64,000 bases of DNA. It comes from Chiloscyllium plagiosum. Lineage: Eukaryota. The notes beneath the pieces were generated by a model, which ran no database searches, was not told where the DNA came from, and saw only the letters and a list, made by a program, of their open reading frames with translations. A program made the position numbers and the translations under genes. Location: positions 12,847,872 to 12,911,871 of the forward strand of contig NC_057719.1 in NCBI RefSeq assembly GCF_004010195.1, written 5' to 3'. Within the stretch, counting starts at the first letter, position 1. Every line of letters begins with the position of its first letter. Below are positions 1-61,048 of the stretch, in pieces.

Positions 1-230
1 ACCTCTCCGCCCCCACCCCCTCTCCGGCCTATCACCCTCACCCTCACCTCCTTCCACCTATTGTATTCCCAGTGCCCCTCTCCCAAATTCCCTCCCCCCT
101 ACCTTTTATCTCAGCCCGCTTGGCACACCAGCCTCATTCCTGAAGAAGGGCTTATGCCCGAAACGTCGATTCTCCTGCTCCTCGGATGCTGCCTGGCCTG
201 CTGTGTTTTTCCAGCACCACATTTTTCAAC
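1..230 (+). mobile_element. PLE terminal repeat, family A, with hammerhead-like core (140-167)
   Basis: C-rich tract, then CTGAAGA-A-GGGC-TTAT-GCCC-GAA-ACGT-C and the shared tail gattctcctgctcctcggatgctgcctg...ttttccagca. Confidence 0.7.
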
Positions 231-647
231 TGTGCCATGATGTGTTGCAAGTAGCTGACCGATGCACTTGGCCAATGTGGTGCTGCTGCTGTGTCGACTC
301 TAAATCGTTCTCCTTGTCTGATGCTTCCCTGAGGGGCTAGCACAGGGGGCAGAGGTCTGAGAGGTTAAGGCTGTTGATATGTTCCTCAATAGACCACACT
401 CCCTCTCCAGATGCAATGATACCCCAACCCAACCATACCCTTGTAGTAGTTACATTTCATCATCTTTGGATACTTGGGCAGCCGAGCTGTGGGCTGTCAG
501 AAAGGGGCAGAAAGGCACATCCACCCTGAGAGGCCAATGTATCCATATTAGGCTGGTGTGACTGGACCCTGATTCTATTGGGTCACTGATGTTACCTGTT
601 ATAATAGTAAAACCAACCCTCGTACAGGCTTGTATCCATCCGCTGTG

Positions 648-862
648 TGGGTCAGTTTAGCTCAGTTGGCTGGATAGCTGATTTGTGATGCAGAGTTAAT
701 GCCAACAATGTGGGTTCAATTTCTGCACTGGCTGAGTCTCTCAGTCATAAAGAATCTCCTTCTCAACCTCCTCCTTTGCCTGAGGTCTGGTGACTCTCAG
801 GTTAAACCACCTCCTGCTATCTGCCTCTAATGAGCTAGCAGGACTATGGCAAGTTTACTTTG
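648..862 (+). mobile_element. tRNA-derived SINE, unassigned family (other copies 8569-8785 + and 55705-55915 -)
   Basis: A-box TAGCTCAGTTGG, B-box-like GGTTCAATT; body cctgaggt..ggtgac..tcaggttaaacc shared by three copies. Confidence 0.65.
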
Positions 863-2221
863 GTCTATATTCCTTGTCCCAACTTAACACCCTAATCCAA
901 GAGCAGCAATGAAAGACTTGCATTTATATAGTGCTTTTCACAACCTCTGGAGGTCTCAAAGGACCAATGACATTCTGTTCTGTAACACAACAGTCAATTG
1001 TCCCTTAGAATTATAACAAGTAATGTGATAATGCCCAGATAATTTGTTATTTTGTTTGCGATATTGAGAACTAGATGTTGACCAGGGCACCAGGGAGAAA
1101 TCCTCTAGTCTCTTTCAAAATGGTGACAGCTTGTAAATGCATGTGAGCAAACAGATAGTGGCTCTTTTGAAAGATGGCGTCCCTGGCATTGCTGTACTCC
1201 CTCAGCACTGCATGGAGTGTCGGCCTTGGGCTATCGCTGTGGAGAGGGACTTGAATCCCAAAAGTTGTTATCCAGAAGTAAGGCAACTTTTATCTGAGCC
1301 ACAAGCAGCTCTGATAATGAATATTGGTCATACTAGCCAGTGTCACCTCGCCAATGACACCTACACTCTGTGAATGAATATTTTTTTAAAAACACATTAT
1401 TTGGGCACATTTGAATTGTAGGTGAGATACTGCTTTCTTCGGGGTGATTACTATGTTTTAATCCTTAGATATTCCGTATGTGTGAGATTAGATTAGATTA
1501 GATTAGATTGCCCACAGTGTGGAAACAGGCCCTTTGGCCCAACCAGTTCACACCGACCCACCGAAGAGCAATGTTTATCAGAATTGCTTGTGTTCCATAG
1601 GGGGGAATGATCTGTTTGAATATGAGTGCAGAACCGTGTGCAAATGAGTTTCTGGCGTTTCTTCATTTGTAGCTGGGGTTGGTATGTGGAAAAATGCAAC
1701 CTTTATTATCAGGCTCGGCATGGGATAATCCTCATCGATTCTGTCCACACATCTGTATCTTCTTTGCACAGCCCTTTATTAAGTTTACACCCTACCTATA
1801 ACAGGCTGTAGAAATTGCTGCAATCACCAGCCAATTCTTCCTCCTCACATCGTAGGAGAAATCAATGACTCCTTCCTCTTGTGTCACATGGGTCCAGAGA
1901 TACTACACAAATCTGACAACTTGATTCCAAAGTAAGCCTAAAGACACCTTGTTTGACAAATAATTGACCACAATTAGCAGCTAAAGTAATGGCCAGACTT
2001 ATGAATCTTACCATTTTTAATGCACCAATGTTGCAGCAACTTCCCTGCCAGAGGTAAACGTTAAACTCAAGCATCCAGAAATGGCTCACTCTATGGTGAA
2101 CTTTTCCAAAAATGGCAATTCGCTGCCTGTCTCACCATTCAACACATTGTCTGGGGTGAAGCTGCTGTATTTACACAGTAGATACATTCAAATTCACAAA
2201 GTGAGTTCAGCATTCTCCATT

Positions 2222-2315
2222 TCTGGATGTAGGTTTGCTCGCTGAGCCGAAAGGTTCATTTCCAGGCATTTTGTTACCTTACTAGGTGACATCTTCAGTG
2301 GGCCTCACGCGAAGC
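2222..2315 (-). mobile_element. PLE terminal fragment, family D (Poseidon-like), decayed hammerhead-like core
   Basis: Homologous to 51085-51195; minus strand reads CA-CTGAAGA-T-GTCACC-TAGTAA-GGTAAC-AAAA. Confidence 0.6.
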
Positions 2316-6022: not shown

Positions 6023-7123
6023 AGGTCTAACAACACTCAAGAAGCTTGACACCATCCGGGACAAAGCAACTCTGCTTGATTCGTTCCACATCCACAAGCA
6101 CTCCCTCTACCACTGATGCTCAGCAGCAGCAGTGTGTACTATCTACAAGATGCACTGCAGAAATTCACCAAAGATCCTGAGACAACACCTTCCAAATGCA
6201 TGACCACTTCCATCTAGAAGGAGAAAAGCAGCAGATACATGGGACAACCTCACTTGCTAGGTTATGGGGAAACTGCAGGAGAATGGGGTTGAGAAACCTT
6301 TCAGCCATGATTGAATGGCGGATTAGACCTGATGAGCTCAGCGGCCTAATTTCTGCTCTTCTGTCTTATGGTCTTATAAAAATCTGACGGGAATGTCCCA
6401 AAGATGGAAAACGCCTGTGAAGTAGATAAACTTTAGAAGCTGGAATTTGAAGAGCAAGTTAGCACAGAATTTGCTGAAAATATTTGTAACTATGAAAATC
6501 CTGGACAGCATAGGTAGGTAGGAAGGTATCCCGTTTGGTGGGAGGATTGTAAACAACAGTGTAGAGGTTTAAGGCATTTGGAAAATGAACATGAGGGACA
6601 TGAGGGACACTTTTTTTCATGCAACAAGTGGTTAGGTCTGGAATACATGGCCAGAGAGTTGGAGGCATGTCTACTTGAGGCTTCAAAAGAGAGCTGATTA
6701 TCTTAAACCAAAGAATATGCATGGCAATGGGAAGAAGATGCAGGAGTGACACTAGGTGCACTCCTGCAGAGAGCCAGTGCAATCACAATGGGCTCAATGA
6801 CCACCTTCTATGCCGTAACAATTCTGTGACAGGTACAAGTTTTAGTGAGTGATGCACTGATCACCCTCAAATCATTACTCTCTCCTGGCCCCTTGCTTCT
6901 TGGAATTAGGCAACTGGTTTCTCACAAAATACTAGTTGGCGACACAGGGAAGGTGGTCATAAATGTGTGAATGGAATGGAGCAAGCAGTGGAGGGAAAAA
7001 TACTATCAGTCAGACTTTATAGTGTTCAATATGGCTTTATTCTCACAGCTACTGGGTAACTTTTCACTAGACAACAGCAAAATCTGATTGCAATACTGGA
7101 GCTGGTCTGTTAGTGTATTGGAG

Positions 7124-7338
7124 TCGAGAGTGGGGTGCTGGAAAAGCACAGCAGGTCAGGCAGCCTCTGAGGAGTAGGAGAATCAACGATTCGGGTGAGA
7201 CCCCTTTCTGATGAAGCATCTTGCCCCTTGTCCGAAACGTCGATTTTCCTGCTCCTTGGATGCCGCCTGAACTGCTGTGCTTTTCCAGCACTACACCCGC
7301 AACTCTGATCTCCAGCATCTGCAGTCCGCACTTTCTCC
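7124..7338. mobile_element. Palindromic PLE derivative, family A, 17-bp TSD
   Basis: Inverted arms gtgctggaaaagcacagcagg.../...ctgctgtgcttttccagcac; flanking direct repeat CTGTTAGTGTATTGGAG (7107-7123) / CTGTTAATGTATTGGAG (7339-7355). Confidence 0.8.
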
Positions 7339-9611
7339 CTGTTAATGTATTGGAGCCCACCTTAAAGGTAAATTATTACTGCCCAAAAGGCCGGATGATG
7401 AAAGTGAATAATTGTAAAGAAAAGCTTGCACATATCAACAGCATTTTTTTACTCACCACAAGACAGCCCGAAGCAATGAAATGTGGTCGCTATTGTGTTG
7501 TAGAAATTGCAGCAGCTAGTTTGAGTACAGCAAGCTCCCATTAACAAAAGTGAACTAATAGTCAGCCGTTGCTTGGAATCGTTGGTTGAGGGATACATAT
7601 TGAGCAGGACACTGGACAGAACAACAGGCCTTCTCCAAAGAAGTGACAGGAGTTCTTTTCCTTCACTAGAAAGAAGCCACTCCGACAGTGCTGCACCCCC
7701 TCAGTGTTGTGAAAAGGGACTTGAACCTTCATACTTGGGTGTGAGGGAAAATCCCATAGAGACACAACCTGAATGGAACAGGCTTCCACCATGTTGAGAC
7801 TGACAATAAGCTGTTTCCTATGGAATCCAAACACGTCCTACGGTGTCTCAGTTGCAGCACACACATTGCTGCGGTTGGGATCTTGCTGTGCATGACATGG
7901 TTGTCCTGTTTCCAACAATGATAAGAGTGGATGTACTTGGACAGCAGATCATTGGGCTGTAGACATGTTTTGTCGTGCCTGGAGGTTATGCAAGTTCATT
8001 TGTTCCTTTATTCTGACACTAGATTCCAGATGGCAGTTTCTGAAAGATTCCACCAGGGGGCACCCATTTCTAGTCAAGTCACAATGACCACTTCAGGGAT
8101 GAGTTGTCAGGATGTATCACCAGTACAATGAGAGAAGATCTGAGGAAACTGAATGACATACATTGTTTTAAATTATAAAAGTCCGCTGAAGCAACAGGTA
8201 ATGAGAGGGTCACTGATTGTTGCCAGACAACACACTGAAGCAAGCACTCAGATTTAATTCACTCAAAATCCATTCACCGGCACAGGTGAAATCATGTTCT
8301 CAGTATTTAAAGATGAATATCCAGAAAAAGGTTGTCTTTTTAATAGTCATTTGCCGGATGTGGATGTCACTGGGTCAGCCAACATTTATTGCCCATCCCT
8401 CATTGCCCGGGAGAAGGAGATAGTGAGCAACATTCATAAACTGCTACAGTCCATGTGCTACAGGGACACCCAGAGTGCTGTTAGGAAGAGAGCTCCAAGA
8501 CTCAGAGCCAGCGACAGTGGAGGAAGTCAGGATGGTAAGTGATTTGGAGAGTGACATGCAGATGGCAGTGGGACTGGTTTAGCTCAGTTGGCTGGATGGC
8601 TGATTTGCATTCACTGTTGTGAGGCCAACAGTGTAGGTTCAATTTGTGCCCCAGCTGAGGTTACCATGGAGGACCTCTCCCTTGTCGACCTCTCCCCTCA
8701 CCTGAGGTGTGGTGACCTTCAGGTTAAACCAGCTGTGCGTCTCTAGTGACAGGACAATCCTTTGTTCCTGTAGGACTATAGTACCGTTAGATCACCTATG
8801 TATCTACTGCCCTTGTCCTTCTGGGTAGTAGAGATCATAGATTTGGAAGATGTTGTCAAAGGAGCCTTGGCTGGCAGATAGTGCCTACACTGCTGCCACT
8901 CTGCATTAGCAGTGGTGAGAATGAATGCTTAAAGTGGGGGATTGGGTCCAAATCAAATAAGCTGCTTTGTCCTGGATGGTGTCGAGCTCCTTCAGTGTTG
9001 TTGGAGCTGCACCCATCTAGGCAAGTGGGTCACCAATTGCACTCTTTGGTTTTGCTGCTTTGTATAAAACAATAACAAACAAAAGATATTGCAATTATGT
9101 CGTCCTTTTCCTGACCAGATGTCCTAAATGGCTGCATAGCTAACAAAGTACCTTTGAAAGGTTATAACTAATGTGATTCAGGAAACACAACTATACATTT
9201 CCACTCGTGAGAATCCAGAAGATGAGATGAGAAAAATAATCAAATAAATTTGCTTTATAGAAGACATCAAAGAGCAGGACTGGGTATGCTTCTGCTCTTA
9301 GTATTATATATGACAATCAGCACAGAATTAGGTCATTCAGACTACTGGCTATTTCAGTCTCTATACAAGTCTCCTCCCAACTCCTTTTGTCTACCTAATG
9401 AGTTGTTGTTTTAATCCTTTCTTATGCACACATCTTTCCCTTGAACAGATCAACTTTATCAACTATATCCAGTGGTATTGAAATCCACATTCTCACCACT
9501 ACCTGGATGAAAATGTTCTGCCTGAATTTCTTCTTGTATTTGTTATCCATTTCATCTAAGGCCCCTAGTTCTAGTTTTATCTTCCCCAACAAGAGGAAGG
9601 AAACATCTACT

Positions 9612-11067: not shown

Positions 11068-11280
11068 TGATTTGGAGATGCCGGTGTTGGACTGGGGTGT
11101 ACAAAGTTAAAAATCACACAACACCAGGTTATAGTCCAACAGGTTTAATTGGAAGCACACTAGCTTTCGGAGCGATGCTCCTTCACCCACAACCACCTGA
11201 TGAAGGAGCGGCGCTCCGAAAGCTAGTGCTTCCAATTAAACCTGTTGGACTATAACCTGGTGTTGTGTGATTTGTAACTT
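11068..11280. mobile_element. Palindromic PLE derivative, family B, 12-bp TSD, intact hammerhead-like core (11197-11225)
   Basis: Inverted arms about 11103-11185 / 11201-11282; perfect TSD TGAAACTTTCCA at 11056-11067 and 11281-11292. Confidence 0.85.
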
Positions 11281-11479
11281 TGAAACTTTCCAAATATAGA
11301 TCTGATACCCACCTGAGTTTACGCCCACGGCTCTACCAGACTCTGATAGAGACTAAATAAACCTCTAGATTATCTGATCACTACCTCCCCCCTCCCCATC
11401 ATGGGCATGGGAAACAAATTCTCCCAAACACCCTCTTCATAATGGCAACTCTCGCTTTGACTCTGTGACCCAGCGAGTG

Positions 11480-11872: not shown

Positions 11873-12182
11873 ATGAAGTTGCTCCGAGCTGCTTGCTCTC
11901 CCCTCCAGCTCCTGCTCCCTGCCCAAGCCGCTGCTCACACCCCCCGGCTCCGGGCTTGTTGCACTTTCAGTGTCACTGCCTACATGCCCGAAGCGGCAGC
12001 TTTCCCCGGGGTCCGGGATTACCCGGGGCTCCGCGATTACTCGGTGCAACAGCCCGACAGTTTCTGGGGAGCCCTAGCCCAGGGCAGACTCTACTGGATC
12101 AGCCCGTTCCACACGGTCAGCGACTGCGACCTGAGCCAGGGCACCATCCGCTGGTTCCAGGGGGGACGCCTCAATGTCTCAG
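11873..12182 (+). CDS. ACSS1: ACSS1 coding exon 1 (presequence plus N-terminal domain)
   Basis: ATG at 11873 with A at -3; MKLLRAACS...SVQQPDSFWG...IRWFQGGRLNVS; donor AG|GTAAGT at 12182/12183; 310 nt, phase 1. Confidence 0.9.
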
Positions 12183-13555: not shown

Positions 13556-13559
13556 TTGT

Positions 13560-16140: not shown

Positions 16141-16694
16141 ACTATTCACTATATTCACTAATTATTCTGTGGGAAATCTTCCATTATCCTACAGTCTTTG
16201 TCCCCACTGTGTCAATGGAAAGGCAACTGAGCTTTATACAATGCTTTTCATGACCTCATATTGGATGTAGCAATCAGGCAAATAAGGATATGCTTGACAC
16301 ACAGAATAATGAACTCTGAGAAACGTTAACTCTGATTTCTCTCCACAGATGCTGCCGGTCCTGCTGAGCTTTTCCAGCAATTTCTGTTTGTGTTTGTGAC
16401 ATTGAATAATGGGCTTGCCTCGGTATTTACCGGAGAAGGTCCACATGCTGTGCATACAAAGGAAACTAATTTTGAATCAGGGACAGGGCTTCACCAACAT
16501 TAACAGAAGCAAAATAACAGTAATGAAGAAGTTAATGGGATTAGAGACTAACAAAACTCCCTAGGTTCAGAAAGTGCCCATCCTCAGATTTTACAGGAGC
16601 ATTGAAGAGGCCATAGCTACCAAAATTCTCTTACTTTAAGAACCGTTCTTTTAGATTGGAAATTTGAGATGCCACTCTGCTGTTTAAGATAGTT

Positions 16695-18711: not shown

Positions 18712-18963
18712 GAGTCAGAAGTTGCATGACACCAGGTTATAGTCCAATATTTGAAATCACAAGCTTTCATAATGCTGCCCCTTCATCAGGAGAAGTGGAG
18801 GGAAGTGCAAAAGCACAGAATTTATTGGTGGAGAGATCATTGCAAGATAATTCCAGGTAATTAATAGTGTCAAAAAATAGTACAAATGAAGCTTCACCCG
18901 ACAAAGGAGCAGCACTCCGAAAGTTTGTGTGATTTCAAATAAACCTGTTGGACTATAACCTGG
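18712..18963. mobile_element. Diverged palindromic PLE derivative, family B
   Basis: ccaggttatagtccaa ... ttggactataacctgg inverted termini with hammerhead-like remnants. Confidence 0.7.
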
Positions 18964-19379
18964 TCTCCTGCGACTGCTGACTATGTGAGAAAGTTGCAAT
19001 ATAAATCTAGGTTGTTGTTAGTAATATGCTTGAGCTGTGAGTACGGTTCCAACAGGGGCAATTTGAACCAAACTCTCGTGGAAATCTGGTGAGGCGGGGT
19101 CGTCATTGAATTGTGAACTGATTCTCCTCTGAAGGGAGTGGTGAGCAGAGTTTTGGCCAGTGTGTAACACTGCTGGACCACCCCACCCGCCTGACAAAAG
19201 TCTGTCCCAGCTTCTAGACTGAAAGAAGCACGAGGCTGTACCGAACTGGAAAGCGAAAGAACTGACAATTGTACTTGGAAATCATGTGACACCACCCTTC
19301 TAACAAGTGATCCTTTTGTATGTTCCATGTGCTTGAATTGCGCCCATTAACTGCTTGCAATGACCTGGGCATTTACTGT

Positions 19380-22053: not shown

Positions 22054-22312
22054 CCAAGAACAGAAATTGCTGAAAAAGCTCAGTGTGTCAGGCAGCACCT
22101 GTGGAGAAAAATCACAGTTAGCGTTTTGGGTCGAGTGTCCCTTCCTCAGAACTGAAGAACAAAATCGGAGCTCTGAGAAAGGGTCACTCACGCTGAGACA
22201 TTATTAACTCTGATTCCTCTCCACAGATGCTTCCAGACCTGCTGAGCTTTTCCAGCAATTCCTGTTTTTTTTTGTTTCTGATTTCCAGTATCCGCAGTTT
22301 TTTTGGTTTGTC
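22054..22312. mobile_element. Palindromic PLE derivative, family C, about 12-bp TSD
   Basis: Inverted arms aattgctgaaaaagctcag...ctgtggaga / tctccacag...ctgagcttttccagcaatt; TSD TTTTCATCTGAT (22042) / TTTTTATCTGAT (22313). Confidence 0.7.
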
Positions 22313-23307: not shown

Positions 23308-23691
23308 TGATGTGGAGGAGCTGGTGTTGGACTGGGGTGGACAAAGTTAAAAAATCACACAACACCAGGCTATAGTCCAACAGGTTTATTTGGAAGCACT
23401 AGCTTTTGGAGCGCTGTTCCTTCATCGGCTGGTTGTGGAGAATCAGACCATAACACACAGAATTTATAGCAAAAGATTACAGTGTCATGCAACTGAAATG
23501 ATATATTGAACAACAATCCAGGTTTCTACAGTGTATCATTTCAGTTGCATGACACTGCAATCTTTTGCTATAAATTCTGTGTCTTATGATCTTATTCTCC
23601 ACAACCACCCGATGAAGGAGCAGCGCTCCAAAAGCTAGTGCTTCCAAATAAACCTGTTGGACTATAACCTGGTGTTGTGTGATTTTTAACT
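23308..23691. mobile_element. Palindromic PLE derivative, family B (about 165-bp arms)
   Basis: Arms about 23345-23510 and 23530-23691 are reverse complements. Confidence 0.85.
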
Positions 23692-23757: not shown

Positions 23758-23890
23758 TAGAAGTGGGTATTGCAGATGCTGGAGATTAGAGTCAAGATTA
23801 GAGTGGTGCTGGAAAAGCACAGCAGATCAGGCAGCATCCGAGGAGCAGGAAAAATTGAAATTTCAGGCAAAAGCCCTTCATCAGGAATGG
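23758..23890 (-). mobile_element. PLE terminal repeat, family A
   Basis: Minus strand ctgatgaagggcttttgcctgaaa followed by the family A tail. Confidence 0.7.
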
Positions 23891-27763: not shown

Positions 27764-27876
27764 AGGCTCCTTTTTTTGAAATCCTCTTTACCTTCCTGTT
27801 AGGTGCCACCTGCAAAACAATCAGGTACTTGTTCTGACAAGGATTAACCCTTTCCTTTCTGATTTCTCACGAACAG

Positions 27877-27973
27877 TGAACTGCATTGACCGCCATGTCC
27901 ACACCTCTCCAGACAAAGTGGCTTTAATCTGGGAGAGAGATGAGCCTGGTGCTCAAGTGAAGATTACCTACAG
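27877..27973 (+). CDS. ACSS1: ACSS1 coding exon 2
   Basis: Pyrimidine tract plus acceptor gaacAG|TGAAC; encodes (V)NCIDRHVHTSPDKVALIWERDEPGAQVKITY(R); donor AG|GTCAGT; 97 nt. Too short for the ORF track. Confidence 0.93.
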
Positions 27974-28224
27974 GTCAGTTTAAAGTGCCGTATGTGCAAA
28001 TTATTAGGCTTGATAACAAACCCGGAGAATTGAAAAGCAGAGTATTTTTTTAAAAACGGCGGCTAGGTTGCAGAATGTTGATGTTCAGAGAGTTTGCTGT
28101 GCACAAGGTATGCAGAAAGTTAGTAGACAGGAGCATCAAGCAATTAGGAAGGCAAATGGAATATTGGCCTTTATTGCACAGAGATTGGAATAAATGAATA
28201 AAGAAGCCTTATTACATTTTTAAA

Positions 28225-29619: not shown

Positions 29620-30156
29620 CAAAACCAGAAAGTGGTGAAGAAGCTCAGCAGGTCTGGCAGCACCTGTAGAGAGAAAGCAGAGTTAACATTTTGGGTTGAG
29701 TGACCCATCCTCAGAACTGATGGTAGCTAGGAAGATGTCAGTTTATATGCAGAAGATAGGGTGGGAGGAGGGGGTGAGGAGTAAAAGATTGAGCCCAAAG
29801 AGAGAGAGGGACAGTTGGACAGACAAAGGAGTGGATAGTTATTTGGCTCGGAGGGGGAGTAGCTATTAATGGGCACTGTTAGTGGCTAACAATAGGTTGT
29901 GTGTAATAGCAGACTATGTGATAACAAGGCTTGATGTGTAGGGGTTGGGATAAGAACATAGGAGAGCTCAAGCCCTAAAGTTATTGAACTAGATATTGAG
30001 CCCGAAAGGCTCTAAGGTCCCCAAGTGGAACATGAGTTGTTGTTCTTCCAGTTTCTGCTGAGCTTTGCTGGAGCACTGCAGCAAGCCTGAGACAGAGATG
30101 CTGGCCAGGGAACAGGATGGGGTGTTAAAGTAGCAGGCAGCTGGAAGCTCAGAGTC
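29620..30156 (-). mobile_element. PLE 3' fragment (family C, Neptune-like): GIY-YIG C-terminal remnant plus terminal repeat
   Basis: Minus 30156-29968 translates DSELPAACYFNTPSCSLASISVSGLLQCSSKAQQKLEEQQLMFHLGTLEPFGLNI*FNNFRA*, followed by a C-rich tract and a decayed hammerhead-like core near 29680-29715. Confidence 0.75.
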
Positions 30157-30751: not shown

Positions 30752-31184
30752 GTGAGAGACCATCCCTTATATTTCTCTTTCTTTTCCTCACTTTCTTTAC
30801 AAGTTCAGTCGGTTTAAGTTTTTAAAACTCCACCCCTTTTATTTAAAGATAACTGTCCAGGACCTTTTGCTACATTTTGCCAGTGTCTCACATTGGAAAA
30901 TACGAAGCTGTAATTGGGAAGCAGCTACAGAATTCAGTGCAAATTGTTGTGGTATCTCCGGACAATTATATAGGGGTGGACACAAGAGAGTATTCTGACT
31001 TCTTCCAGCTGTTAAAAGGGGCAGGGTCAATCTCAGATGGTTAGTCTTGTCAACATTGAGTCGGAGGTGAATGAACATGCATAGGGCCTTATGTCCAATA
31101 GGAATAGACAAACTCAATGCAGCTTTTAGCGTCTGGAAAGACCATTGACCTAAAAAGGTTAACTCTATTTCTCTCCACAGATTT

Positions 31185-34240: not shown

Positions 34241-34462
34241 AACAGCGAAAAAGGATCACCAGACTCAAAATGTTAATGCTGTTTCTCTGCTGATGCTGCC
34301 AGACCAGCTGCGTTTCTCCAGCACTTTCTGTCCTGGTTCCAAGCTTTCTTTGGGATTTGTCCTCATGCTGTCTGGCTCTGGCCAGTGGGAATAATATATA
34401 AACCGTAAACCGTTTTTACTGAATACTGTAATCCTCTAATGATTGTGTTCTCATTTTCAAAG

Positions 34463-34638
34463 CACAGTGTGAGACCGTGATCACTGCCAACCAGGCTCTG
34501 AGGGGTGGACGGGTCATCAATTTGAAGAAAACTGTGGATCAAGCAGTGAAACAGTGTCCTTCAGTCAAGCGAGTGCTTATCGCAACAAGAACAGAGAACA
34601 AGGTCCCAATGTCAGATATTGACATTCCCCTCGAGGAG
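34463..34638 (+). CDS. ACSS1: ACSS1 coding exon 4
   Basis: Acceptor ttttcaaAG|CA; (A)QCETVITANQALRGGRVINLKKTVDQAVKQCPSVKRVLIATRTENKVPMSDIDIPLEE; donor GAG|GTAGGT; 176 nt. Confidence 0.93.
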
Positions 34639-35406: not shown

Positions 35407-35892
35407 CTAGAAGGGCATTATGTTCCAGATCGATTTTTAAGCAGCAAACGTATAGTCTCACCGTCACCATAATCAACATTTTATTCCACATTTCATTACG
35501 TTGAGATTTCCCTAAGATTCCATGGTGGGATTTGAACTCTTACCTCCAAAGCATTGGTTTAGGTCTCTAGGTTACCGGTCTGGAAACATTACCGCTTGGC
35601 TACCATCGGCCTCTACATCTGTTTGAGAGGATGGGCAAGACCTCAGTATAATGATTCATCTAACAAGATGGCACCTCCAATGGAGCAGCACACTCTCACT
35701 GGAGCAAGTCTCTGGTATGTGCTACAATCCCTGGAGCAGACTGTTTTCATTAGAGCAATGTTTAAGTCAGGCCCTGGTGACAGGAAAGCATGGAGGCCTG
35801 CAGTAAGGCCCGTGAATATGTAAAGGGTTAAATGTCCACTTGAGCATCTTGGCATCTAGAAAATGGGTGTTGAGAGCATGATGGAGGAAATG

Positions 35893-36072
35893 CACAGCAG
35901 ATCAGGAAGCATCCGAGGAGAAGGAGAATCAACGTTTCGGGCAAGAGCCCTTCATCAGGAATGAGGCCTGAAACGTCGATTCTCCTGCTCCTCGGATGCT
36001 GCCTGACTTGCTGTGCTTTTCCAGCACCACACTCTCAACTCTGATCTCCAGCATCTGCAGTCCTCACTTTCA
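35893..36072. mobile_element. Palindromic PLE derivative, family A
   Basis: gcacagcagatcagg...aacgtttc / gaaacgtcg...gctgtgc arms; flanking AGGAAATG repeat; minus-strand core ctgatgaagggctcttgcccgaaacgtt. Confidence 0.78.
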
Positions 36073-36589
36073 TATAGGAAATGGGCTCAGTCTGCCCCGT
36101 CATTGATTCTGTACATGGGAAAGGAACTGAGCCAAAAGGTTCCGGTTCAGGCAGCAACCCTCAACAACAGGCTACACTGTGTTCTGTGAATTTACTCCCA
36201 CAATCTCAGACCACAGGATCTGACAGAGTGTTTGATTATCGCTGCCATTTTTCAGACTGGTGTAACTGTCAGCCCCTTACAGAGTCAGACAGTTTAATCA
36301 TTTTTTCAGTCGAGCTGCTGTGTCTGGCTTTCTTTCGTTTGCAAAACGCTTTGGCTGATCACACAGGGTTACCATCAACCCTTCTCCTCCCCCTCCTCTT
36401 CCCCTTCTGCTGATAGCGACAGCCATGTTTTGCTCACTGGGTGGGCGGGCCGAGACCCCTAATGGAGACGGTGCTAAAGCGATAGGTCACTTCTGTGAAA
36501 GGCAAAAGTTTCAGATAGTTTTATCCCGGTATCTTTATGGCTCCGTTGATTTTATATATTGCACGGCTAAAGAATGGCTTATTTTCCAG

Positions 36590-36742
36590 GAAATGATGAA
36601 AGAAGAAGCAGCCTGTGAACCCGTTGCCATGGAGAGTGAGGACATGTTGTTCCTGTTGTACACGTCAGGGAGCACAGGGAAACCGAAGGGTGTGGTACAC
36701 ACACAGGCAGGTTTCCTGCTGTACGCGGCTCTCACACATAGG
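36590..36742 (+). CDS. ACSS1: ACSS1 coding exon 5 (AMP-binding P-loop)
   Basis: Acceptor ttttcc[56 protein letters not shown]; donor AGG|GTGAGT; 153 nt. Confidence 0.95.
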
Positions 36743-36959
36743 GTGAGTAAAGGCTGAGAAGGCGGCTGCTAATGTGGGAAATCTGAAACCATGACACAAA
36801 ATGCCGGAAACATATGCTGAGGTCAGTTAGGACGTATGAGAAAACTTCGTGTTTAAAAGGTGGATCCTTGACATTGGAAAAAGAAGCATTCATGGCCATT
36901 CAGCCTAATTAGCATTTCAATTCCTCCTTTAAATATTTGGTCGAAAGGGAGCAGAGTAT

Positions 36960-37385
36960 AGGGTGAATATATGGTAATAGGGTGGAATGGGAGTGGGGTG
37001 TGGAGGGGAATGGGAATGGGGTTTGGGATGGAAATGGAATGGGAAGTGGTATGGAATGGGAATGGGGAGATGGAATGGAATGGGAATGAGGCGTAGGTTG
37101 GAATGGGAGTGAGTTGTGGAGAGGAATGGGATTGGGTTGTGGAGAGAAATGGGATTGGGGTCTGCGATGGAATGGTAGTGGGGTTTGAGATAGAATGGGA
37201 ATGGGAGGTGGGATAGAATGGGAGTGGGGTGTGCAGAGGAATGGGAATGGGTTGTGGAGAGGAATGGGAATGGGGTCTGCGATGGAATGGTAGTGGGGTT
37301 TGGGATAGAATGGTAGATGGGAGAGAATGGGAGTGGGGTGTGGAATGGAATGGGAATATGGTGTGAGATGAATGGGAGTAGGGTG
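36960..37385. repeat. G-rich (GGAAT/GGGAAT)n-like low-complexity tandem repeat
   Basis: Repeated ggaatgggaatggg units with larger internal duplications (gggtctgcgatggaatggtagtggggtttg x2). Confidence 0.85.
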
Positions 37386-37659
37386 CGCAGCGCAGGGTGG
37401 GTGTGAAGGTTTCTGTGATAATCTGTAAAACAAGAAAGTACAATTAATGAATTTACAACCATCTGGTCTCAATCATGTGAAATACAAGATGAGAGATTGG
37501 GGGTGGGGAGAGAGAGTTGCCTTCGGGAGTAGTTATCCAACAGCCAAAACATAAATCCTGGAAAATTTCCTGCATTCTTTCCTGGATTTATGGACCCACG
37601 GTCATTTCCATGATGAAGTAAGTTCTGTACAGCCTGAGATTCCTAAGAGTGGACTGCTG

Positions 37660-44070: not shown

Positions 44071-44732
44071 TTTTTATAAAAGTCATGAGGATAAGCAATG
44101 ATTAAAGGACACAGTTTATAATTAAGAGGTTTTAAGACTGAGATGAAGGGGATTTTTTTCTCTCCCAGAGGGTTATTGGTGCAGAATTTACTTTCCCAGA
44201 AGATAGTGGAAGCTGGATCATTGAATGTCTTCAAGGCTGGGTTAGTCGACGATGGGTTGAGGGTTATGGGGATGTGTGCAGACAGGAGAGTGGGGATTTG
44301 AAGCTACAAACATAACCAGCCATTATCTTATTGAATAGTTGCGCCAGCTCTACAGGGCCCTGTCCTGCTCCCAATTCCTTTGTTCCTGTGTGTTGTCTGA
44401 TATGCAGCTAATGAAAGACTGTCTGCCAGCAGTTGAGTATTTTGGCCATAATGAGCTGTAATTTACTTTGCCTCCGTACTGAGAGTTGACAAGTGCAATC
44501 CTATCATGTGTGATCATGTTCTTTGCAGAATCATTTGGTGGGACATAGTGAGTATGTACTGAGCGCTGGCTGAAAAATGCAGACCTTTTCCGAAATTCCA
44601 GATTTGAATTCCTAGTCCAATATCCACTCTTCTCACAGCCATGAAACCACTCTTGTCGATGTGAGAAATCACCTCCACTATCTCCAGTGACAAAAGCAAA
44701 ATTTCCTCTTTATCCTTCTTGACCTGTCAGTG

Positions 44733-45752
44733 CATTGGGCTCCATACACCATCCTCCACCAGCAATCTCCATTGTCTACCAGCACATTGGGCCCCATACA
44801 CCATCATCCACCAGCAATCTCCATTGTCTACCAGCACATTGGGCCCATACACCATCATCCACCAGCAATCTCCATTCTCTACCAGCACACTGGGCGCCAT
44901 ACACCATCCTCCACCAGCAATTTCCATTGTCTACCAGCACATTGGGCCCCATACACCAAACTCCACCAGCAATCTCCATTGTCCAACAGCACATTGGGCC
45001 CCATACACCAAACTCCACCAGCAATTTCCATTGTCCCATACACCAAACTCCACCAGCAATTTCCATTGTCCAACAGCACATTGGGCTCCATACACCATCC
45101 TCGACCAGCAATCTCCATTGTCCAACAGCACATTGGGCTCCATACACCATCCTCGACCAGCAATCTCCATTGTCTACAAGCACATTGGGTCCCATACACC
45201 ATCATCCACCAGCAATCTCCATTGTCCAACAGCACATTGGGTCCCATACACCATCCTCCATCAGCAATCTCCATTGTCCAACAGCACATTGGGCTCCATA
45301 CACCATCATCCATCAGCAATCTCCATTGTCCAACAGCACATTGGGTCCCATACACCATCATCCACCAGCAATCTCCATTGTCCAACAGTACATTGGGTCC
45401 CATACACCATCCTCGACCAGCAATCTCCCTTGTCTACGAGCACATTTGGTCCCATACACCATCCTCCACCAGCAATCTCCATTGTCCAACAGCACATTGG
45501 GTCTCATTCACCATCCTCCACCAGCAATGTCCATTGTCCAAAAAGACATTGGCCCCAAACACCATCCTCCACCAGCAATCTCCATTGTGTACCACCACAT
45601 TGGGTCCCATACACCATCCTCCACCAGCAATCTCCATTGTCTACCAGCACATTGGGCTCCATACACCATCCTCTACCAGCAATCTCCATTGTCTACCCGC
45701 ACATTGGGCCCCATACACCATCCTTCACCAGCAATCTCCATTGTGTACCAGC
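44733..45752. repeat. 52-bp minisatellite, about 19-20 units
   Basis: Unit cattgggctccatacaccatcctccaccagcaatctccattgtctaccagca; period 52 (44733 to 44785); one shortened unit near 45003-45040. Confidence 0.95.
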
Positions 45753-45933
45753 TGGATAGCACTCAGTTGCGTCATTTCAATCATTTATGTGAGGTGACGG
45801 CCTCGTGGTATTATCAGTGGCCTGTTAACCAGCAATCCAGGTAACATTCTGGGAACCTGGGTTTGAATTCCTCAACAGCAAATGGTAGAATCTGAGTTCA
45901 ATTTAAAAAAAAATAATTTGAATATAAGAGTTT

Positions 45934-46240: not shown

Positions 46241-47829
46241 AGTTTAATGATGATCATGAATCCATTGTTGATTGTCTAGAAAAACCCATCTGCTTCATGA
46301 ATGTCCTTTGGGGAAGGGAAACTGCCATCCTTACCTGGTCTGGCCGATACATCTTGATACGGAGGTGCTGGTGTTAGACTGTGGTGCACAAGGTCAGAAG
46401 TCTCACTATACCAGGTTATAGTCCAACAGGTTTATTTGAAATTACAAGCTTTTGGAGCGAAGTCACCTGACGAAGGAGCAGTGCTCGAAAAGCTTGTGAT
46501 TCCGGCATCTTCCAAACTCACGAACACTTCCATCTAGAAGGACCAGAACAGCAGATATGTGGGAACACCACCTCCTTCAGGATCCCCTCCAAGTCATTCA
46601 CCATCCTGACTTGGAAATATATTGCCGTTCATTCACTGTTGCTACTGTTCAAAATCCTGGAAATCCCTCTCTGATCGGTCAACCCACAGCAGGTGGGCTG
46701 CAGTGGTTCAAGGAGGCAGCTCACCACCACCTTTTCATGGGGCAACAAAGAATGGGTAATAAATGCTGGGCCAGCCAGCGACGACCACATCCCACAAATG
46801 AATTTTTAGAAAATTAAAGATAAAATTTTTGTTAGGTTGCTGGTTAAAAGGAGTGAGTGAAGTTTCTTTTCCCCAGAGCAACAATGGCTATCATGAGGGG
46901 TCATAATTTTAAGGTGATTGCAGGAAGGTATAAGGGAGATGTCAGAGGTAGGTTATTTATGCAGAGAGTGATGGGTGCGTGGAATGCACTGCCAGCAGTG
47001 GTAGTAGAGTCAGAGACATTAGGGATGTTTAAGCAATTACTGGACAAGCACATGGACGGCAGTAAATTGAGGGGCGTGTAATTAAGGTTGATCTTAGATT
47101 AAGATAAATGCTCGGCACAACATCATGGGCCAAAGGGCCTGTACTGTGCTGAATTGTTCAATGTTCTAAATTTCTTCCATGCTTAAACAGGAGTTCTTAA
47201 ACAAGTTCATAAGCTGACTGGCTTTAGCTGGTTTATCTGTATTAGCAGATTGTTATCTGCTGGCGTATTGTTTCTCCATAAGCATAAATACGGGGGATTT
47301 TCAATGCTGCTTGAGTGTGGCATGCCGGGGGTTGGGTGAGTGACGGTTGTACTGAACTGTAAGTGAATTAATTACTTAATGTTACATTGTAAAAGGAGCC
47401 AACAAGGTGAAGCTTTTTTTCTTGCACTCATCAGAACTAGGACACGGATCTTTTTCATGTCTGTTTCTTCCATATTGGTCCATGATTGCAAAATGAGAAG
47501 CTTCACTTCTTATTGGTGTTTAAATCATTTGATGAAAACTAAATAAATCTGCCTGACACAATAAAGGTGGCAATGTGGGTGCTACGGCATGTGGGAAGTC
47601 CTGCTTACCCTGGCAACCCTGGCTGTGATAAATGTCTAAAGCTTGAGGACTTTCAGCTCAGAGTCATTGAGTTGTGACAGATCAGGGATGGGGAGCATTA
47701 CCTGGCCACTTTTGTTCCTGAAGTCCTGAAGAAGGATCAAACCCGAAATGTTGATTTCTCCACCTCCTGATGCTGTCTGGCCTGCTGTGTTCTTCCAGCC
47801 TGTCTACTATGTTCCAAAAGGCGGTCATA

Positions 47830-48530: not shown

Positions 48531-49279
48531 ACAGAGGGAAGAAGAAATCACGTTTATGAAGTTTGAGTAAATTACAGGGCAATGACTAATTAAGATAACA
48601 AAATACAATAAAGATAACCAATGTCGGAACATAGGAGCAGGAACTTTCAGCTAATCAGGTCCACCCCACCATTGATTAGCATCTCATAACCCTCTACATC
48701 ACTAATAATCAAAAATCTATTGATCTACCTTAAGGGAATCTCTCTACCTTAAATATACTCAAAGACTGAGCTTCCACAGTCCCCTGGGATAAAGCATCAA
48801 TCCCATTTATCCAATTAAGTATTTTGTACATTCCAAAGAGATCATCTCATCACTCTTATGATCTCTAGCCCACTTTACCCAATCTCTCTTCATAGGACAA
48901 TCCCCTCTCGGGAACAAGACTGGTGAATACTCATCGCTGTCCCTCTATGGTCATGATATCTTTCCTGAGATAGCAAGGCCAAACCTTCACACAGTACTCC
49001 ACATACAACCTCACTGTACATCACAAAGGAGATGAAAGTAGTTTGGAGTATCTCCAAGTTACAATAGTGTGTGCAACTGACACCCATCAGTTTCTCAAAA
49101 CCGCAAATGTTTTAGGAAATTTCATGGATTAACTAACCTGTTCAGAACCAACCTAAAACAAAAATCTTGACTGGGAGATTGTTTTTAAATCTGGTCAATT
49201 TTCAGCACATCTGCGATGTAACTATCTGTGATTGTAATATGACTTTAGTTTGTTTCTCTCTCTCTCTCTCTCTCTCCAG

Positions 49280-49427
49280 TATGTGTTTGATTACCACGAT
49301 GGTGACGTGTTTGGCTGTGTTGCGGATGTTGGTTGGATCACTGGGCACAGCTACGTGGTGTATGGACCTCTGTGCAATGGAGGAACCACCGTGCTGTTTG
49401 AGAGTACTCCAGTCTACCCGAATCCAG
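49280..49427 (+). CDS. ACSS1: ACSS1 coding exon 6
   Basis: (TC)n tract plus c[54 protein letters not shown]; donor CAG|GTAACA; 148 nt. Confidence 0.95.
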
Positions 49428-49499
49428 GTAACACCAGTGAAGGCTCAACTATGGCGATCACACCCCTCACATGTCCACATCTCGCTGACAGGACAGACA

Positions 49500-51600
49500 G
49501 AGCTCTTGAAGAATATAGAGGAAACAGGAAAGAACTTAAAGAGTGAGGGGGTCTGAAACGGGCATAGAAATGACCTTGGCAAACAGGATTAAGTAAAATC
49601 CCAAGACTTTTTATGTGTATATAAGGAGCAAGAGGATAGCTAGGGAACAGGTAGGTATACTGAAGAACAATAGAGGGAATTTATGCTTGGAGCTAGAAGA
49701 AGTGAGTGAGGTCCTTGACAAATCCTTTTGAATGGATATTCACAAATGGTGAATGGTGGTCTGGAGAGGGGTATGTTGATAAACTAGGGCATGTCAATAT
49801 TTTTAAAAAAAGATGGTTCTGGGTGTTTTGAAAAACAGTAAGGTAGACAAGTCCACGGGAGTTGATGGGATCTGTCCCAGAATACTCAACAAGGTGAATG
49901 AGGAAATTGCTGGAGCCTTGTATGAAATCTTTGTATCCACTTCAGTCACAGGAGAGGTCCCAGAGGACTGGAGAAATGTTGTTCCCTTGTTTATGAAGGG
50001 CACCAGGGATAATCAAGAAATTACAGGCTCTTACATCAGTGGTAGGGAAATTAGTGGAGAAGATTTTTAGGGGCAGCATTTATCACATTTTTAAAAAATT
50101 GACTTATTAGCGACTAGCTAAATGGCTTTGTATAGGGGAGGTCGTGAATCACAAAGACGATTTGAGTTTTTTGAGGAAATGACAAAAAAATGACTGACGA
50201 ATGCAGGGCAGTAGATGTTGTCCAAGTGGGCTTTAGCACTTTCTATGTCAAGGAACCTAATGGCAGGCTGACGGAGAAGTTAAAGTCACATGGGAGCAGC
50301 AGTGAGCTGGCAAGATAGATGCTGAACTGGATTGGTCATAGAAGACAGAGAGTAGCAGTGGAAGGGTGTTTTTCTGACTGGAAGCCTGTGACCAGTGGTG
50401 TTCTGCAGGGATCAGCACTGGGCCCTGCCTCCCCCCCCCGGCAGGGTTTATAATATGTATGATTTGGAGGAGAAAGTAGATGGCCTGATAAGTAAGTTTC
50501 ACACAAAGATTGGGGGAGCTGTGGATAGTAAGGAGGATTGCCAGAGGATACAGCAGGAAACAGATAGATTGGAGTCTTGGATGGAGAAATAACCAATGGA
50601 GTTTGATCTGGACAACTGCAAGGTGATGCATTTTGCAAGGTCTAATGCAGGAGGCAAGTATAGAGCCAATGGCAGAAATCTGAGAAGCATCAACATACAG
50701 AGGGATCTCGGTGTACAGATCCACAGTTCCCAGGAAGTGGCAACATTAGGTGGTCAAAGAGGCATAAAACATTCTTACCTTCATCAGTTGAGGCATAGGT
50801 TATAAAAATTGGTAAGCCATGTTACAGCTTTATACAAGTTTAGTTAGGCCACACTTGGAATAATGTGTGCAGTTCTGGTCGTCACACTACCAGAAGGATG
50901 TGGAAGCTTTGGAGAGAGTACAGAAATGGTTTACCAGGATGTTGCCAGGCTTGGAGAGTATTAGCTACAAGGAGAGACTGGACCAACTTGGTTTGTTTTC
51001 ACTTGAGCATTGAAAGGTGAGAGGTGACCTGATACAAGTTTACGAAATTACAAGAGGCTTGCAATTTTTGAGAGGATTTGTAGCTCGGGTTGAGGTTCAG
51101 GTTGTTAAATTTGTTCGCTGAGCTCCAAGGTTTGTTTCTCAGATGTTTCGTCACCATACTAGGTAACATCATCAGTGAGCCTCCGGTGAAGCGCTGGTAT
51201 TCTGTCCCTTTTTCTATCTATGTGTCTTGGTCTCATAAGGTGGATGATATCATTTATGGTTCTTTTTCTCAGAGGTTGGTAAATCAGGTCCAATTCCATG
51301 TGTTTATTGATGCAGTTCTGGTTTGAATGTCAGGCCTCTGGGAATTCCCGTGCGTGTCTCTGTTTAGCCTGCCCCAGGATGGATGTGTTGTCCCAGTTGA
51401 GGAGTGTCCTTCTTCATCTGTACGTAAGGATACTAGTGATAGTAGATCATGTTTTTTGGTGGCTAGTTGGTGTGACTCACTATTATTAGTATCCTTAGGG
51501 TAGAAATGTCAATTACTAGGGGACTGAGGTTTAAGATAAAAGGGAGTAGGTCAAAAGGAGATGTGAGATGTAGGTTTTTCTACACGAGGGTGCTACGTGC
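49500..51600 (+). mobile_element. CR1 LINE ORF2 remnant interrupted by a PLE at about 51065-51480
   Basis: KVDKSTGVDGICPRIL, TGEVPEDWRNVVPLF, gactggaagcctgtgaccagtgg, aggccacacttggaa. Confidence 0.85.
51065..51480 (-). mobile_element. PLE 3' fragment (family D, Poseidon-like): GIY-YIG remnant plus hammerhead-like core (51140-51177)
   Basis: Minus strand HQLATKKHDLLSLVSLRTDEEGH/NWDNTSILGQAKQRHAREFPEA*HSNQNCINKHMELDLIYQPLRK; core CA-CTGATGA-T-GTTACC-TAGTAT-GGTGAC-GAA-ACAT-C-TG. Confidence 0.78.
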
Positions 51601-51730
51601 CTGGAATGTGCGACCTCCTTAAAGCATGTGGTCTGATCTGATCATGTGGCTGTCACATTTTGTTTTATGACTTACCTGTGAACCCCTTTTGGGATGTTTC
51701 ATTACTTCAAAGGTGCTATATAAATGTAGT

Positions 51731-52485
51731 CATGATTTGGAAATGCTGGTGTTGGACTGGGGTGTACAAAGTTAAAAATCACACACCAGGTTATAGTCCA
51801 ACAGGTTTAATTGGAAGCACTAGCTTTCAGAGCGCCGCTCCTTCATCAGATGGTTGCGGAGTATAACATTGTAAGACACAGAATTTATAGTAAAGTTTAC
51901 AGTGTGATGTAACTGAAATTATACATTGAAAAATACCTTGATTGTTTGTTGAGACTTTCATCTGTTCGAATACCATGATAGTTTCACTTCTTTCATGTGT
52001 AAATCACAAAACGTTTTTTAGAAAGTTGCATTCTCAGGTTAACTATAACAATTGGTGATAGCTAGACAATATGTTGAAGGTGTTAGCCCCCTGTGTTCTC
52101 TGTTTATGCCATGATGTTTAGATTGATTCTAATCTAAAAAATGAGATAACAGAGTTTACATGAATGCATGCAGTTTTTGAACAAAGTACAATGTAACTCT
52201 GCAAGTACAAATTCACCCCACATGTGTATATGTGTGTGTGTGGTGTCTGTCTGGGTTGGGGGGTTGTGAGTGTGAGAGAGAGTGTATATGTGTGTGAGTG
52301 TAGACTGGTCTAAGTGTGTGTGTGTGTGGTGTCTGTCTGGGTTGGAGGGTTGTGAGTGTGAGAGAGAGTGTATATGTGTGTGTGTGTATATAGTGCAATG
52401 GTGGTCACCTGTAGTGTGACATGAACCCAAGATCCCGGTTGAGGCGCATGGAACTTAGCTATCAGCCTCTGCTCGGCCACTTTTC
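51731..52485 (-). mobile_element. PLE family B long 3' fragment with ORF end
   Basis: Minus strand KVAEQRLIAKFH/LNRDLGFMSHYR* (52484-52405), then a CA-rich tract with an internal duplication, then the family B terminal repeat. Confidence 0.75.
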
Positions 52486-54634: not shown

Positions 54635-54860
54635 ATGTGTTGCTGGAAAAGCGCAGCAGGTCAGGCAGCATCCAAGGAGCAGGAGAATCGACGTTTCAGG
54701 CATAAGCCCTTCTTCAGGAATGAGGCTTAATTCCTGAAGAAGGACTTATGCCCGAAACGTCGATTCTCCTGCTCCTTGGATGCTGCCTGACCTGCTGCGC
54801 CTTTCCAGCAACACATTTTTTAGCACTGATCTCCAGCAACAGCAGTCCTCACTTTCTCCA
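54635..54860. mobile_element. Palindromic PLE derivative, family A (87-bp arms, 8-nt loop)
   Basis: 54635-54721 is the reverse complement of 54730-54816 with few mismatches; hammerhead-like cores on both strands. Confidence 0.88.
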
Positions 54861-59219: not shown

Positions 59220-59680
59220 CATAGAGTCATAGAGATGTACAGCACGGAAACAGACCCTTTTGTCCAATTCGTCCAAGCTGACCAGATATCCCAACCTAAT
59301 TTAGTCCCATTTGCTAGCACTTGGCCCATATCCCTCTAAACTCTTCCTATTCATATACCCATCCAGATGTGTTTTAAATGCTGCAATTGTACCAGCCTCC
59401 ACTACTTCCTCTGGCAGCTCACTCCATACACGCACAACCCTCGGTGTGAAAATGTTGCCCCAGAGATCTCTTTTATATCTCTCCCCTCTCACCCTAAACC
59501 TACGCCCTCTAGTTCTGGACTCTCCCACCCCAGGGAAAAGACTTTCTCCATTGACTCTATCCACGCCCCTCATGATTTTATAAACCTCTATAAGAACACC
59601 CCTCTGCCCCCGATGCTCTGGGGAAAACAGCCCCAGCCTAGTCAGCCTCTCCCTACAGCTCAAATCCTCCAACCTTGGCA
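59220..59680 (-). mobile_element. CR1 LINE 3' end
   Basis: LGLFSPE..IEVYKIMRG..SRTRG..VWSELPEEVVEAG plus tail. Confidence 0.88.
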
Positions 59681-60499
59681 ACCATGAATTACTGTTTCTC
59701 CTCTTGTGCTGAACATTAGAACCAAGGGACCTCCTGATCCTGAAGAGATGCTTTGGTACTCTGGAGAATCTGTGGGAAGTCAATGCTAATTCACATTGGA
59801 TACAGCAGAGTTGTTTTCCCTTGTAGGACGGTCTAGCACCAGAGGGTGCCATCTCAGAAGAAGGGATTGCCCATTTAATGATGTGGAGGTGCCAGTGTTG
59901 GACTGGGGTGGACAAAGTTAAAAATCACACAACACCAGGTTATAGTCCAGCAGGTTTATTTGGAAACACTAGCGTTTGGAGAGCTGCCTGACCTGCTGAG
60001 CTTTTCCAGCAATTTTGTTTCTGATTTACAGCATCTGCAGTTCTTTCGGTTTTTATTTGACGAGTTACAGATGTCGTCTATGATTAATTCAGAACACATG
60101 CATAGCTTAGCATTGCTTAGAAGGGAATGGCTATGGCTCCTAAATCTCCCCATCTGGTTCGAATTGATAGAGATGAATTGCTACAATAATTCAATAATTT
60201 TATGTAAACAGCAGGATACTGAGAGGTGAACTAGGTGGATTTTAGCCTTTTATTATTTAGTGATCCCTACACTCTGTTGCTGGTTGGGCCCCAGTTATTA
60301 TCGTACGGGTCATTGCTTGAGGGAATCAGTCTTCTGCTGATTGGCATTTGGGACATTTGCTCCAAATGCTGCCAGTGGTTTCTAGCTGTCTTCTCTTACC
60401 CTCATCTCGCTATCCGTGCACTAAATAACTTCAAACCGGCCCTGCACTGCGTCTGTCAGATGTGTAACTGACCCCCAACACAACATTCAGATCGCTACA

Positions 60500-61048
60500 A
60501 GTTTAAAATCACACAACACTAGGTTATAGTCCAACAGGTTTAAGCACTAGCTTTCGGAGCGCCACTCCTTCATCAGGTGGTTGTGGAAGACACATTTGTA
60601 AGACACAGAATTTATAGCAAAAGTTTACAGTGTGATGTAGCTGAAATTATACATTAAAAAATACCTAGATTGTTTGTTAAGTCTCTCATCTGTAAGAATG
60701 ACCATGTTAGTTTCACTTCTTTTATTCTCAGGTTAACCTGAGAATGTAACTTTTTTAAAAAAAAGTTTTGTGATTTACATATGAAAGAGGTGAAGCTATC
60801 ATGGTCATTCTAACAGATGAGAGGCTCAACAAACAATCAAGGTATTTTTTAATGTATAATTTCAGCTACATCACACTGTAAACTTTTGCTATAAATTCTG
60901 TGTCTTACAAATGTGTCCTCCACAACCACCTGATGAAGGAGCGGTGCTCCAAAAGCTAGTGCTTCCAATTAAGCCCATTGGACTATAACCTGGCGTCGTG
61001 TGATTTTTAACTTTGTAAGCCCAGTCCAACACCGGCATCTCCGAATCA
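60500..61048. mobile_element. Large fold-back PLE derivative, family B
   Basis: Arms of about 220 bp are reverse complements; perfect 22-bp palindrome ATTCTCAGGTTAACCTGAGAAT at 60724-60745. Confidence 0.85.

Follow-up and report, generated by a model that had tools for sequence, protein, structure and literature searches.

Minimal hammerhead ribozymes were published in 2014 by Cervera and de la Peña in the pseudo-long terminal repeats (pLTRs) of metazoan Penelope-like elements (PLEs), where monomers did not cut and dimers cut weakly (PMC4209133). Frangieh et al. (2024) reported that the hammerhead of PAc, a Poseidon element of Anolis carolinensis, cuts only with the element's protein, that hammerhead mutants leave insertion in vitro unchanged, and that a C3/G8 rescue reveals real hammerhead chemistry (PMC11167929). 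The purpose of PLE hammerheads is still open (Craig et al. 2021, PMC8557442). The animal non-LTR retrozymes represent non-autonomous hammerhead derivatives of PLE pLTRs; they have been reported in one chondrichthyan genome, and one of nine Xenopus dimers cut in vitro (bioRxiv 10.64898/2026.07.22.740005). In this study, we compared with these published systems a stretch of 64,000 nucleotides of the shark Chiloscyllium plagiosum (assembly GCF_004010195.1, 3.56 Gb; contig NC_057719.1, forward-strand positions 12,847,872 to 12,911,871), hereafter the window, which carries part of the host gene ACSS1. The original prediction, made from the letters of the window, had described four dispersed repeat families, A to D, with a hammerhead-like core.

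Our results suggest, with a probability of about 0.92, that these motifs are minimal type I hammerheads in the pLTRs of at least four PLE lineages, and that the copies in ACSS1 are decayed relics that most likely do not cut the host RNA. The motifs of the window belong to the class already described and are a new example of a known thing.

Hammerhead architecture in four repeat families

The families have a common layout of CUGANGA, one extra base, stem II, GAAA, an NUH triplet, a 4-nt palindrome and a stem I of 2-3 bp, and the catalytic boxes (CUGANGA, GAAA, U16.1 and H17) are the majority letters in A, B, C and D. The single unpaired base after A9 and before 10.1 is A in families A, B and C and U in family D. 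The 10.1-11.1 pair is G-C, or G-U through CpG decay. There is no helix III, and the palindrome is ACGU in A and C and AGCU in 49 of 55 B sequences. In 32 family D copies, retrieved with a query that itself had ACAT, the word reads ACGT (9), ACAT (13), ATGT (4), ATAT (2) or otherwise (4), a pattern that, judged from the letters, is CpG decay from ACGT. The self-complementary word that had been proposed to replace stem III is therefore right for A, B and C, while the D word of the window, ACAU, is not a palindrome.

Stretches of A, B, D and C were searched against the genome, and the best 40 loci were taken for each out of 2390, 533, 5412 and 4902 first-look candidates, respectively, figures that are not copy numbers. 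The pairing test used 168 motif rows picked by the core boxes (at most one mismatch) and the downstream flank, without a pairing filter. The majority letters pair at 24 of 24 stem positions (four outer positions of stem II and two inner positions of stem I per family), and 22 of these pairs are Watson-Crick, against 32 of 72 positions when the 5' and 3' strands were swapped between families. The identity of the pair differs between families at 10.2, 10.3, 10.4, 2.1 and 2.2, and in the palindrome at 15.2-16.2 (ACGU versus AGCU). These observations agree with the claim that four families share a minimal core with stems that differ and still pair. MAFFT set B and D out of register in an alignment across all families, so the formal pair count was restricted to 19 A-like and C sequences; 85.8% of their cells are paired, against 82.2 +- 0.9 in shuffles and 14-50% in slid controls. 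One A-like copy elsewhere in the genome (L042:58, plus strand) has GAGC/GCUC for GGGC/GCCC in stem II, a compensatory change within the A group seen in this single copy.

To follow decay, 20 B copies were selected by an upstream stretch in which the motif is not included; 10 of them are intact. Conserved positions amount to 194/199 in the non-CpG core, 247/260 in the stems, 310/339 in the upstream flank, 689/739 in the downstream flank and 98/120 at CpG. The difference between non-CpG core and upstream flank has a Fisher p of 0.005, a generous value because the B copies are related. Variants in the flanks and the loop are partly common to several B copies, a pattern to be expected from selection on master elements and not on each insertion.

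The core pattern has 19 matches in the window, against 5.84 +- 2.28 in 100 shuffles, none of which reached 19. Fifteen of these rows (14 copies) belong to the repeat families and four are chance-like; since repeat copies are not independent, the excess indicates non-random sequence and not function. A hammerhead-like pattern opposite the family A tail (23779 plus; 7315, 36051 and 54836 minus) was rejected, having G at position 6 and no palindrome.

The published minimal hammerheads show the same CUGANGA, extra base after A9, G10.1-C11.1, GAAA, palindromic 15.2-16.2 without helix III, UH site and short open helix I (PMC4209133). They likewise form several consensus families per genome, mostly as single dispersed copies with opposite-strand pairs and a location in the pLTR, and their alignment contains rows with the words ACGU and AGCU, as in our families. 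Stem I, with 2 bp in A and 3 bp in B, C and D, stands at the short end; the same paper gives 4-5 bp in Schistosoma and 2 bp in D. virilis. The marks of a canonical type I hammerhead, a 6-bp helix I with loop contacts and an Rfam match, are absent, helix I having 2-3 bp. No term for sharks or cartilaginous fish occurs in two supplement files of PMC4209133 that were searched or in the alignment rows examined, and a narrow literature search, which missed subscription journals and Repbase, found no shark report of PLE hammerheads. Retrozymes differ in forming head-to-tail tandem arrays (bioRxiv 10.64898/2026.07.22.740005), whereas the copies here are single or in tail-out inverted pairs, and none of the 40 window pieces forms a head-to-tail array of hammerhead units.

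Carrier elements and the starts of truncated copies

Family A stands directly 3' of frames for a reverse transcriptase (RT; Pfam RVT_1, E 2.6e-6) and a GIY-YIG endonuclease (E 3.5e-4) at three loci (L007, L009 and L010), and the endonuclease is preceded by a CX4CxxC linker. At the locus of the first window motif (L001), the C-terminus of a GIY-YIG frame sits just 5' of the window edge. Family D lies 3' of a separate GIY-YIG frame (E 3.6e-4), with no CX4CxxC linker in the 194-aa frame examined. Families B (L094, L097 and the window remnant at 52313-52483) and C (29992-30162) lie 3' of remnants that are 30-37% identical to the A endonuclease, with E down to 1e-10; the four endonuclease remnants share 30-42% identity with it. 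A search with the family A RT gave 69,050 first-look candidates, which is not a copy number, and some genomic copies are young (97% identical).

In A, B and D, the 3' ends form two clusters separated by 30-45 nt, which corresponds to an optional tail. The 105 bystander pieces include 20 tail-out inverted pairs, made up of 40 pieces, and no tail-in pair. Endonuclease-bearing PLEs of the Neptune/Nematis and Penelope/Poseidon groups have the same order of RT and C-terminal GIY-YIG, seen here in family A, as well as inverted 5'-truncated copies and an optional tail of 30-40 bp (PMC8557442). The CX4CxxC linker is a mark of Neptune/Nematis in that survey, and family A has it, a clade name drawn from the linker. 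The original prediction of at least four PLE lineages with minimal type I hammerheads is thus borne out by the distinct endonuclease remnants, the inverted truncated copies, the optional tail and the match to the published consensus. At three places (window 59,880-60,045, L100 and L006:620-820) different Penelope families are joined or nested, with B beside A/C, A within B, or an A-like piece beside A, which suggests insertion into earlier copies.

PAc resembles these elements in having its hammerhead in the pLTR, a start codon at the start of stem II, two 3' ends split by the tail, and no RNA-seq ends at the cut site (PMC11167929). It differs in that it was assayed in vitro, whereas our families are known from sequence, and in that family A has the Neptune/Nematis linker and A at the extra position. 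The PAc start codon is comparable in its place to an ATG of family D, which stands at A9-x-G10.1 in 23 of 23 matches and from which the frame is open for at least 36 codons in 9 of 23. The family D endonuclease frame itself crosses the catalytic core and ends in loop II, with TAG in 19 of 23 matches. This coding overlap would explain U as the extra base of D. In family C, just past the cut site (29660-29685 minus, 16330-16352 plus), a pyrimidine tract ending in CAG is followed by ATG and resembles a splice acceptor. The ATG after the cut site is present in family A too, mostly without the preceding AG. PLEs retain introns in their 5' untranslated regions.

The starts of truncated copies were surveyed in 207 kb, made up of the window and the flanks of the retrieved loci with their centres masked, where bystander copies adjoin other repeats. 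Relative to C3, the 96 pieces with a free 5' end start beyond -15 upstream (23), at -15 to +5 (40), inside the motif (17), within 3 bases of the cut site (5) or beyond it (11). Subfamily divergence upstream could mimic such a boundary, and abutting inverted arms were therefore counted separately. Of these 40 arms, 22 start at -15 to +5, none at -35 to -16, 6 at +6 to +25, 2 at the cut and 5 beyond, and 5 are long. BLAST ends are uncertain by a few bases, and very short arms are missed. The arm boundary is sharp and lies 2-10 bases upstream of C3 in three families; at six junctions inspected by eye, the arms extend 2-10 bases upstream of C3, with filler. Sequencing-run depth rises 10- to 60-fold at the same place (in run X21, from 21 and 57 to 390 and 502). 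Loose ends before 1610 in X21 were rejected as cleavage ends, for they include the motif itself and are due to a variant base in the reference. Runs X1 and X18 consist of contigs, which do not reveal where molecules end. The sequence just upstream of C3 is TCATTC in A and TCAGTT in C, which we take to resemble an initiator.

For this boundary, a transcription start with an uncut template is preferred over stalling or template switching of the RT at the motif. A fuller scheme is offered tentatively, at odds clearly below even: the element RNA may start just upstream of the hammerhead, stay uncut, be primed internally in the first pLTR and be copied onto both nicked strands, giving palindromes of 170-190 bp that silence their own ribozymes as hairpins. 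A narrow literature search, which missed subscription journals and Repbase, found no description of such a 5' boundary of copies. Short tail-out palindromes of 170-190 bp with arms starting at the 5' edge of the ribozyme occur at 54635-54820, 11101-11285, 22055-22269 and 35886-36041 and at many other loci. In Rfam they give spurious matches to microRNA precursors, and they would yield long double-stranded RNA in the host pre-mRNA. The Rfam matches to mir-4662 and mir-680 were rejected in this way, being the inverted pair at 54.7 kb, far under the gathering scores.

Alternative readings and the ACSS1 transcript

By analogy with the published systems, we presume that in an active tandem element two motifs of the same family would pair through their 4-nt palindromes into a shared helix III, and that cleavage by the dimer would follow GUC, GUU or CUA, be weak and probably depend on help from the element's own protein. 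Selection on master elements would keep the structure, and dispersed copies would be inactive from their insertion onwards, with CpG (C11.1-G12 and the ACGT word) as the main place of decay.

Several observations weigh against the hammerhead reading. An RT was identified for family A alone, with B, C and D placed by endonuclease remnants, and the family A RT gave no match among solved structures. Every Pfam match lies below the curated cut-off, and the B and C endonuclease pieces have none. An Rfam scan of the window returned 8 matches up to E 10 with no hammerhead model among them, so that this check proposed with the original prediction went against it. A covariance model from the A/C alignment recovered nine A-like or C copies at E < 0.001, and typical B and D copies were absent from its matches up to E 10; its strong sequence specificity makes it unfit to probe shared structure. 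In the 19-sequence alignment just two pairs change on both sides, no more than in shuffles (484/500), and both reflect one lineage split. Covariation and core conservation, which had also been proposed as checks, spoke for the prediction in the B core and in the 24 pairs and not in this formal count. The core-versus-flank test counts kin copies as independent, and the flanks contain subfamily variants. Monomers fold no better than shuffles; D is the exception, and the core is buried in its best fold. In all four families, the cofold minimum is 8-16 kcal/mol below the catalytic dimer, in a nearest-neighbour model that ignores core contacts.

A chance resemblance, in which a short hairpin flanked by two common words was multiplied by repeats, would agree with the missing Rfam match, the unremarkable folding energies of the monomers and the presence of just four to six independent lineages. 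We consider its probability negligible, because all 24 positions pair in four lineages whose proteins are 30-42% identical, and the spacing, extra base, palindrome and element position are equal and match the published consensus. It is also unlikely, though less so, that a real motif is maintained by a function different from cutting, be it as a protein-binding or folding signal, as a region of translation start and stop, or as part of an internal promoter. Few pieces start at the cut site (5/96), the mutants in PMC11167929 do not alter insertion in vitro, and in family D the coding constraints overlap the motif, all of which would suit such a role. However, in four lineages with differing frames and flanks it is precisely the catalytic positions that are invariant, and the Poseidon element showed the C3/G8 rescue (PMC11167929). 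The ATG constraint, moreover, is inapplicable to A, B and C, which have A and not U at the extra position.

Very unlikely, in our estimate, is that some intronic copies cut the ACSS1 pre-mRNA, as distant dimers in cis or together with RNA of the element in trans, and modulate or impair the expression of ACSS1, with sense copies capable of cutting being purged by the host. Sense copies alone could cut this RNA. Most pieces are intronic (33/40), and intact cores are rarer among sense (2/17, at 47726 and 54734) than antisense pieces (7/16), a post hoc and non-significant bias in one gene (Fisher p 0.057). Neither sense copy is fully paired, their helix III words are unlike (AUGU and ACGU), they lie 7 kb apart, and 54734 pairs with its own inverted arm in a hairpin of -170.9 kcal/mol. 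Monomers were inert and dimers weak in PMC4209133, and the Anolis motif needs its protein (PMC11167929). In a poly(A) single-cell RNA run, 2105 reads on a family A element showed no point where many molecules begin or end; such a library is ill-suited to cut ends, and the run may not derive from this shark, which counts against our own reading as well. These reads lie on both strands, and 95% extend into unrelated sequence, pointing to read-through of host transcripts. The hint that copies act within the ACSS1 pre-mRNA thus found little backing, and their effect on the host transcript is most likely no cutting.

Copies in the window and what they mean

At 11,873, a frame of 102 aa shows 100% identity to the C. 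plagiosum acetyl-coenzyme A synthetase 2-like, mitochondrial, which we take to be the ACSS1 product, and the exon frames match Pfam ACAS_N and AMP-binding. Two tandem arrays lie in the introns, at 44,681-45,794 and 36,959-37,388, with periods of 52 and 23 bases. A BLAST search with six window copies as references gave 41 rows, of which 40 were kept; the row at 6186 matched the unique flank of a reference only. The number of pieces is thus well above the 20 or so first supposed, but the catalytic boxes are kept in just 12 of 40, and boxes with palindrome in 9 of 40. Many do lie in the ACSS1 pre-mRNA, as had been said, whereas 7 (at 140, 2298, 7.2 kb, 10.9 kb and 11.2 kb) are upstream of the start codon at 11,873 and outside the introns. 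One of these, the intact B copy at 11197-11225, is on the sense strand about 0.6 kb upstream of the start codon, within an inverted pair.

All motifs named in the original prediction were recovered in their places (Table 1), including the family C piece at 16321 (plus), which is without its 5' half. The family C consensus pieced together from the window was right except for the variable loop; the window holds no intact C copy, as those at 22149 and 29714 carry A at G12, and intact C copies are present elsewhere in the genome.

Table 1. Positions of ACSS1 exons, hammerhead motifs and element remnants in the window.
Feature	Position	Strand	Remarks
ACSS1, 7 coding exons	11873-12181, 27873-27995, 30550-30756, 34453-34638, 36587-36742, 49277-49432, 61374-61541	+	continues beyond the window
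Family A motif, intact	140-167	+	core, 4-bp stem II, ACGU palindrome, GUC site; pLTR extends past window start; upstream of ACSS1
Family D copy, broken	2265-2298	-	palindrome lost; A in place of G12
Family A tail-out inverted pair	7119-7345	both	plus-arm core at 7208, stem II lengthened and imperfect
Family B tail-out inverted pair	11101-11285	both	plus arm 11197-11225 intact (AGCU palindrome, CUA site)
B-like variant	18762-18790	-	core and palindrome present, stem II weakened, stem I UCAC/GUGA, CUU triplet; partner arm 18894-18989 (+) broken
Family C tail-out inverted pair	22055-22269	both	both arms broken; minus arm G12 to A, motif 22120-22149
Family B inverted pair	23326-23691	both	neither arm intact (U4 to C, G12 to A)
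Family A copy	23857-23884	-	core intact, palindrome lost
Family C motif	29685-29714	-	G12 to A; 3' end of a longer copy
GIY-YIG C-terminal remnant	29992-30162	-	upstream of the family C motif; matches the endonuclease of family A at 35% over 57 aa (E 1e-10); no Pfam GIY-YIG match of its own
Family A motif, intact	35931-35958	-	GUU site; antisense to ACSS1; short inverted arm 35966-36041 (+)
B-like variant	46467-46495	+	stem I UCAC/GUGA, CUU site; core broken at 11.1/12
A-like variant, intronic, sense	47726-47752	+	core intact; 11-nt stem-loop II, mismatched; palindrome decayed (AUGU)
Family D motif	51142-51175	-	intact core; stem II of 6 bp; ACAU through decay of the palindrome; upstream frame crosses core and ends within loop II
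Family D endonuclease C-terminal remnant	51162-51413	-	broken, two frames' worth; homologous loci match Pfam GIY-YIG, E 3.6e-4
Family B motif	51821-51849	-	antisense to ACSS1; core and palindrome intact; at the terminus of a long copy
Family B endonuclease C-terminal remnant	52313-52483	-	a (CA)-rich stretch follows; matches locus L097 at 76% over 17 aa
Family A tail-out inverted pair	54635-54820	both	54690-54717 (-) intact; 54734-54761 (+) with A-C mismatch in stem II; one long hairpin fold
Family B long inverted pair	60499-61030	both	60548-60576 (-) intact; 60930-60958 (+) G12 to A

The discovery value of these motifs is small, since the class has been in print since 2014. Sharks nevertheless offer a rich natural sample of PLE hammerheads, with several lineages and very many copies, some of them young. 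Two features bear on what PLE hammerheads are for: where the short copies begin on their 5' side, and which strand carries the intact intronic copies. If the scheme of an uncut, internally primed element RNA is true, it would give genomic support to what was found in vitro, namely unprocessed RNA as the substrate, and the role of the hammerhead would lie elsewhere than in forming the template's 5' end.

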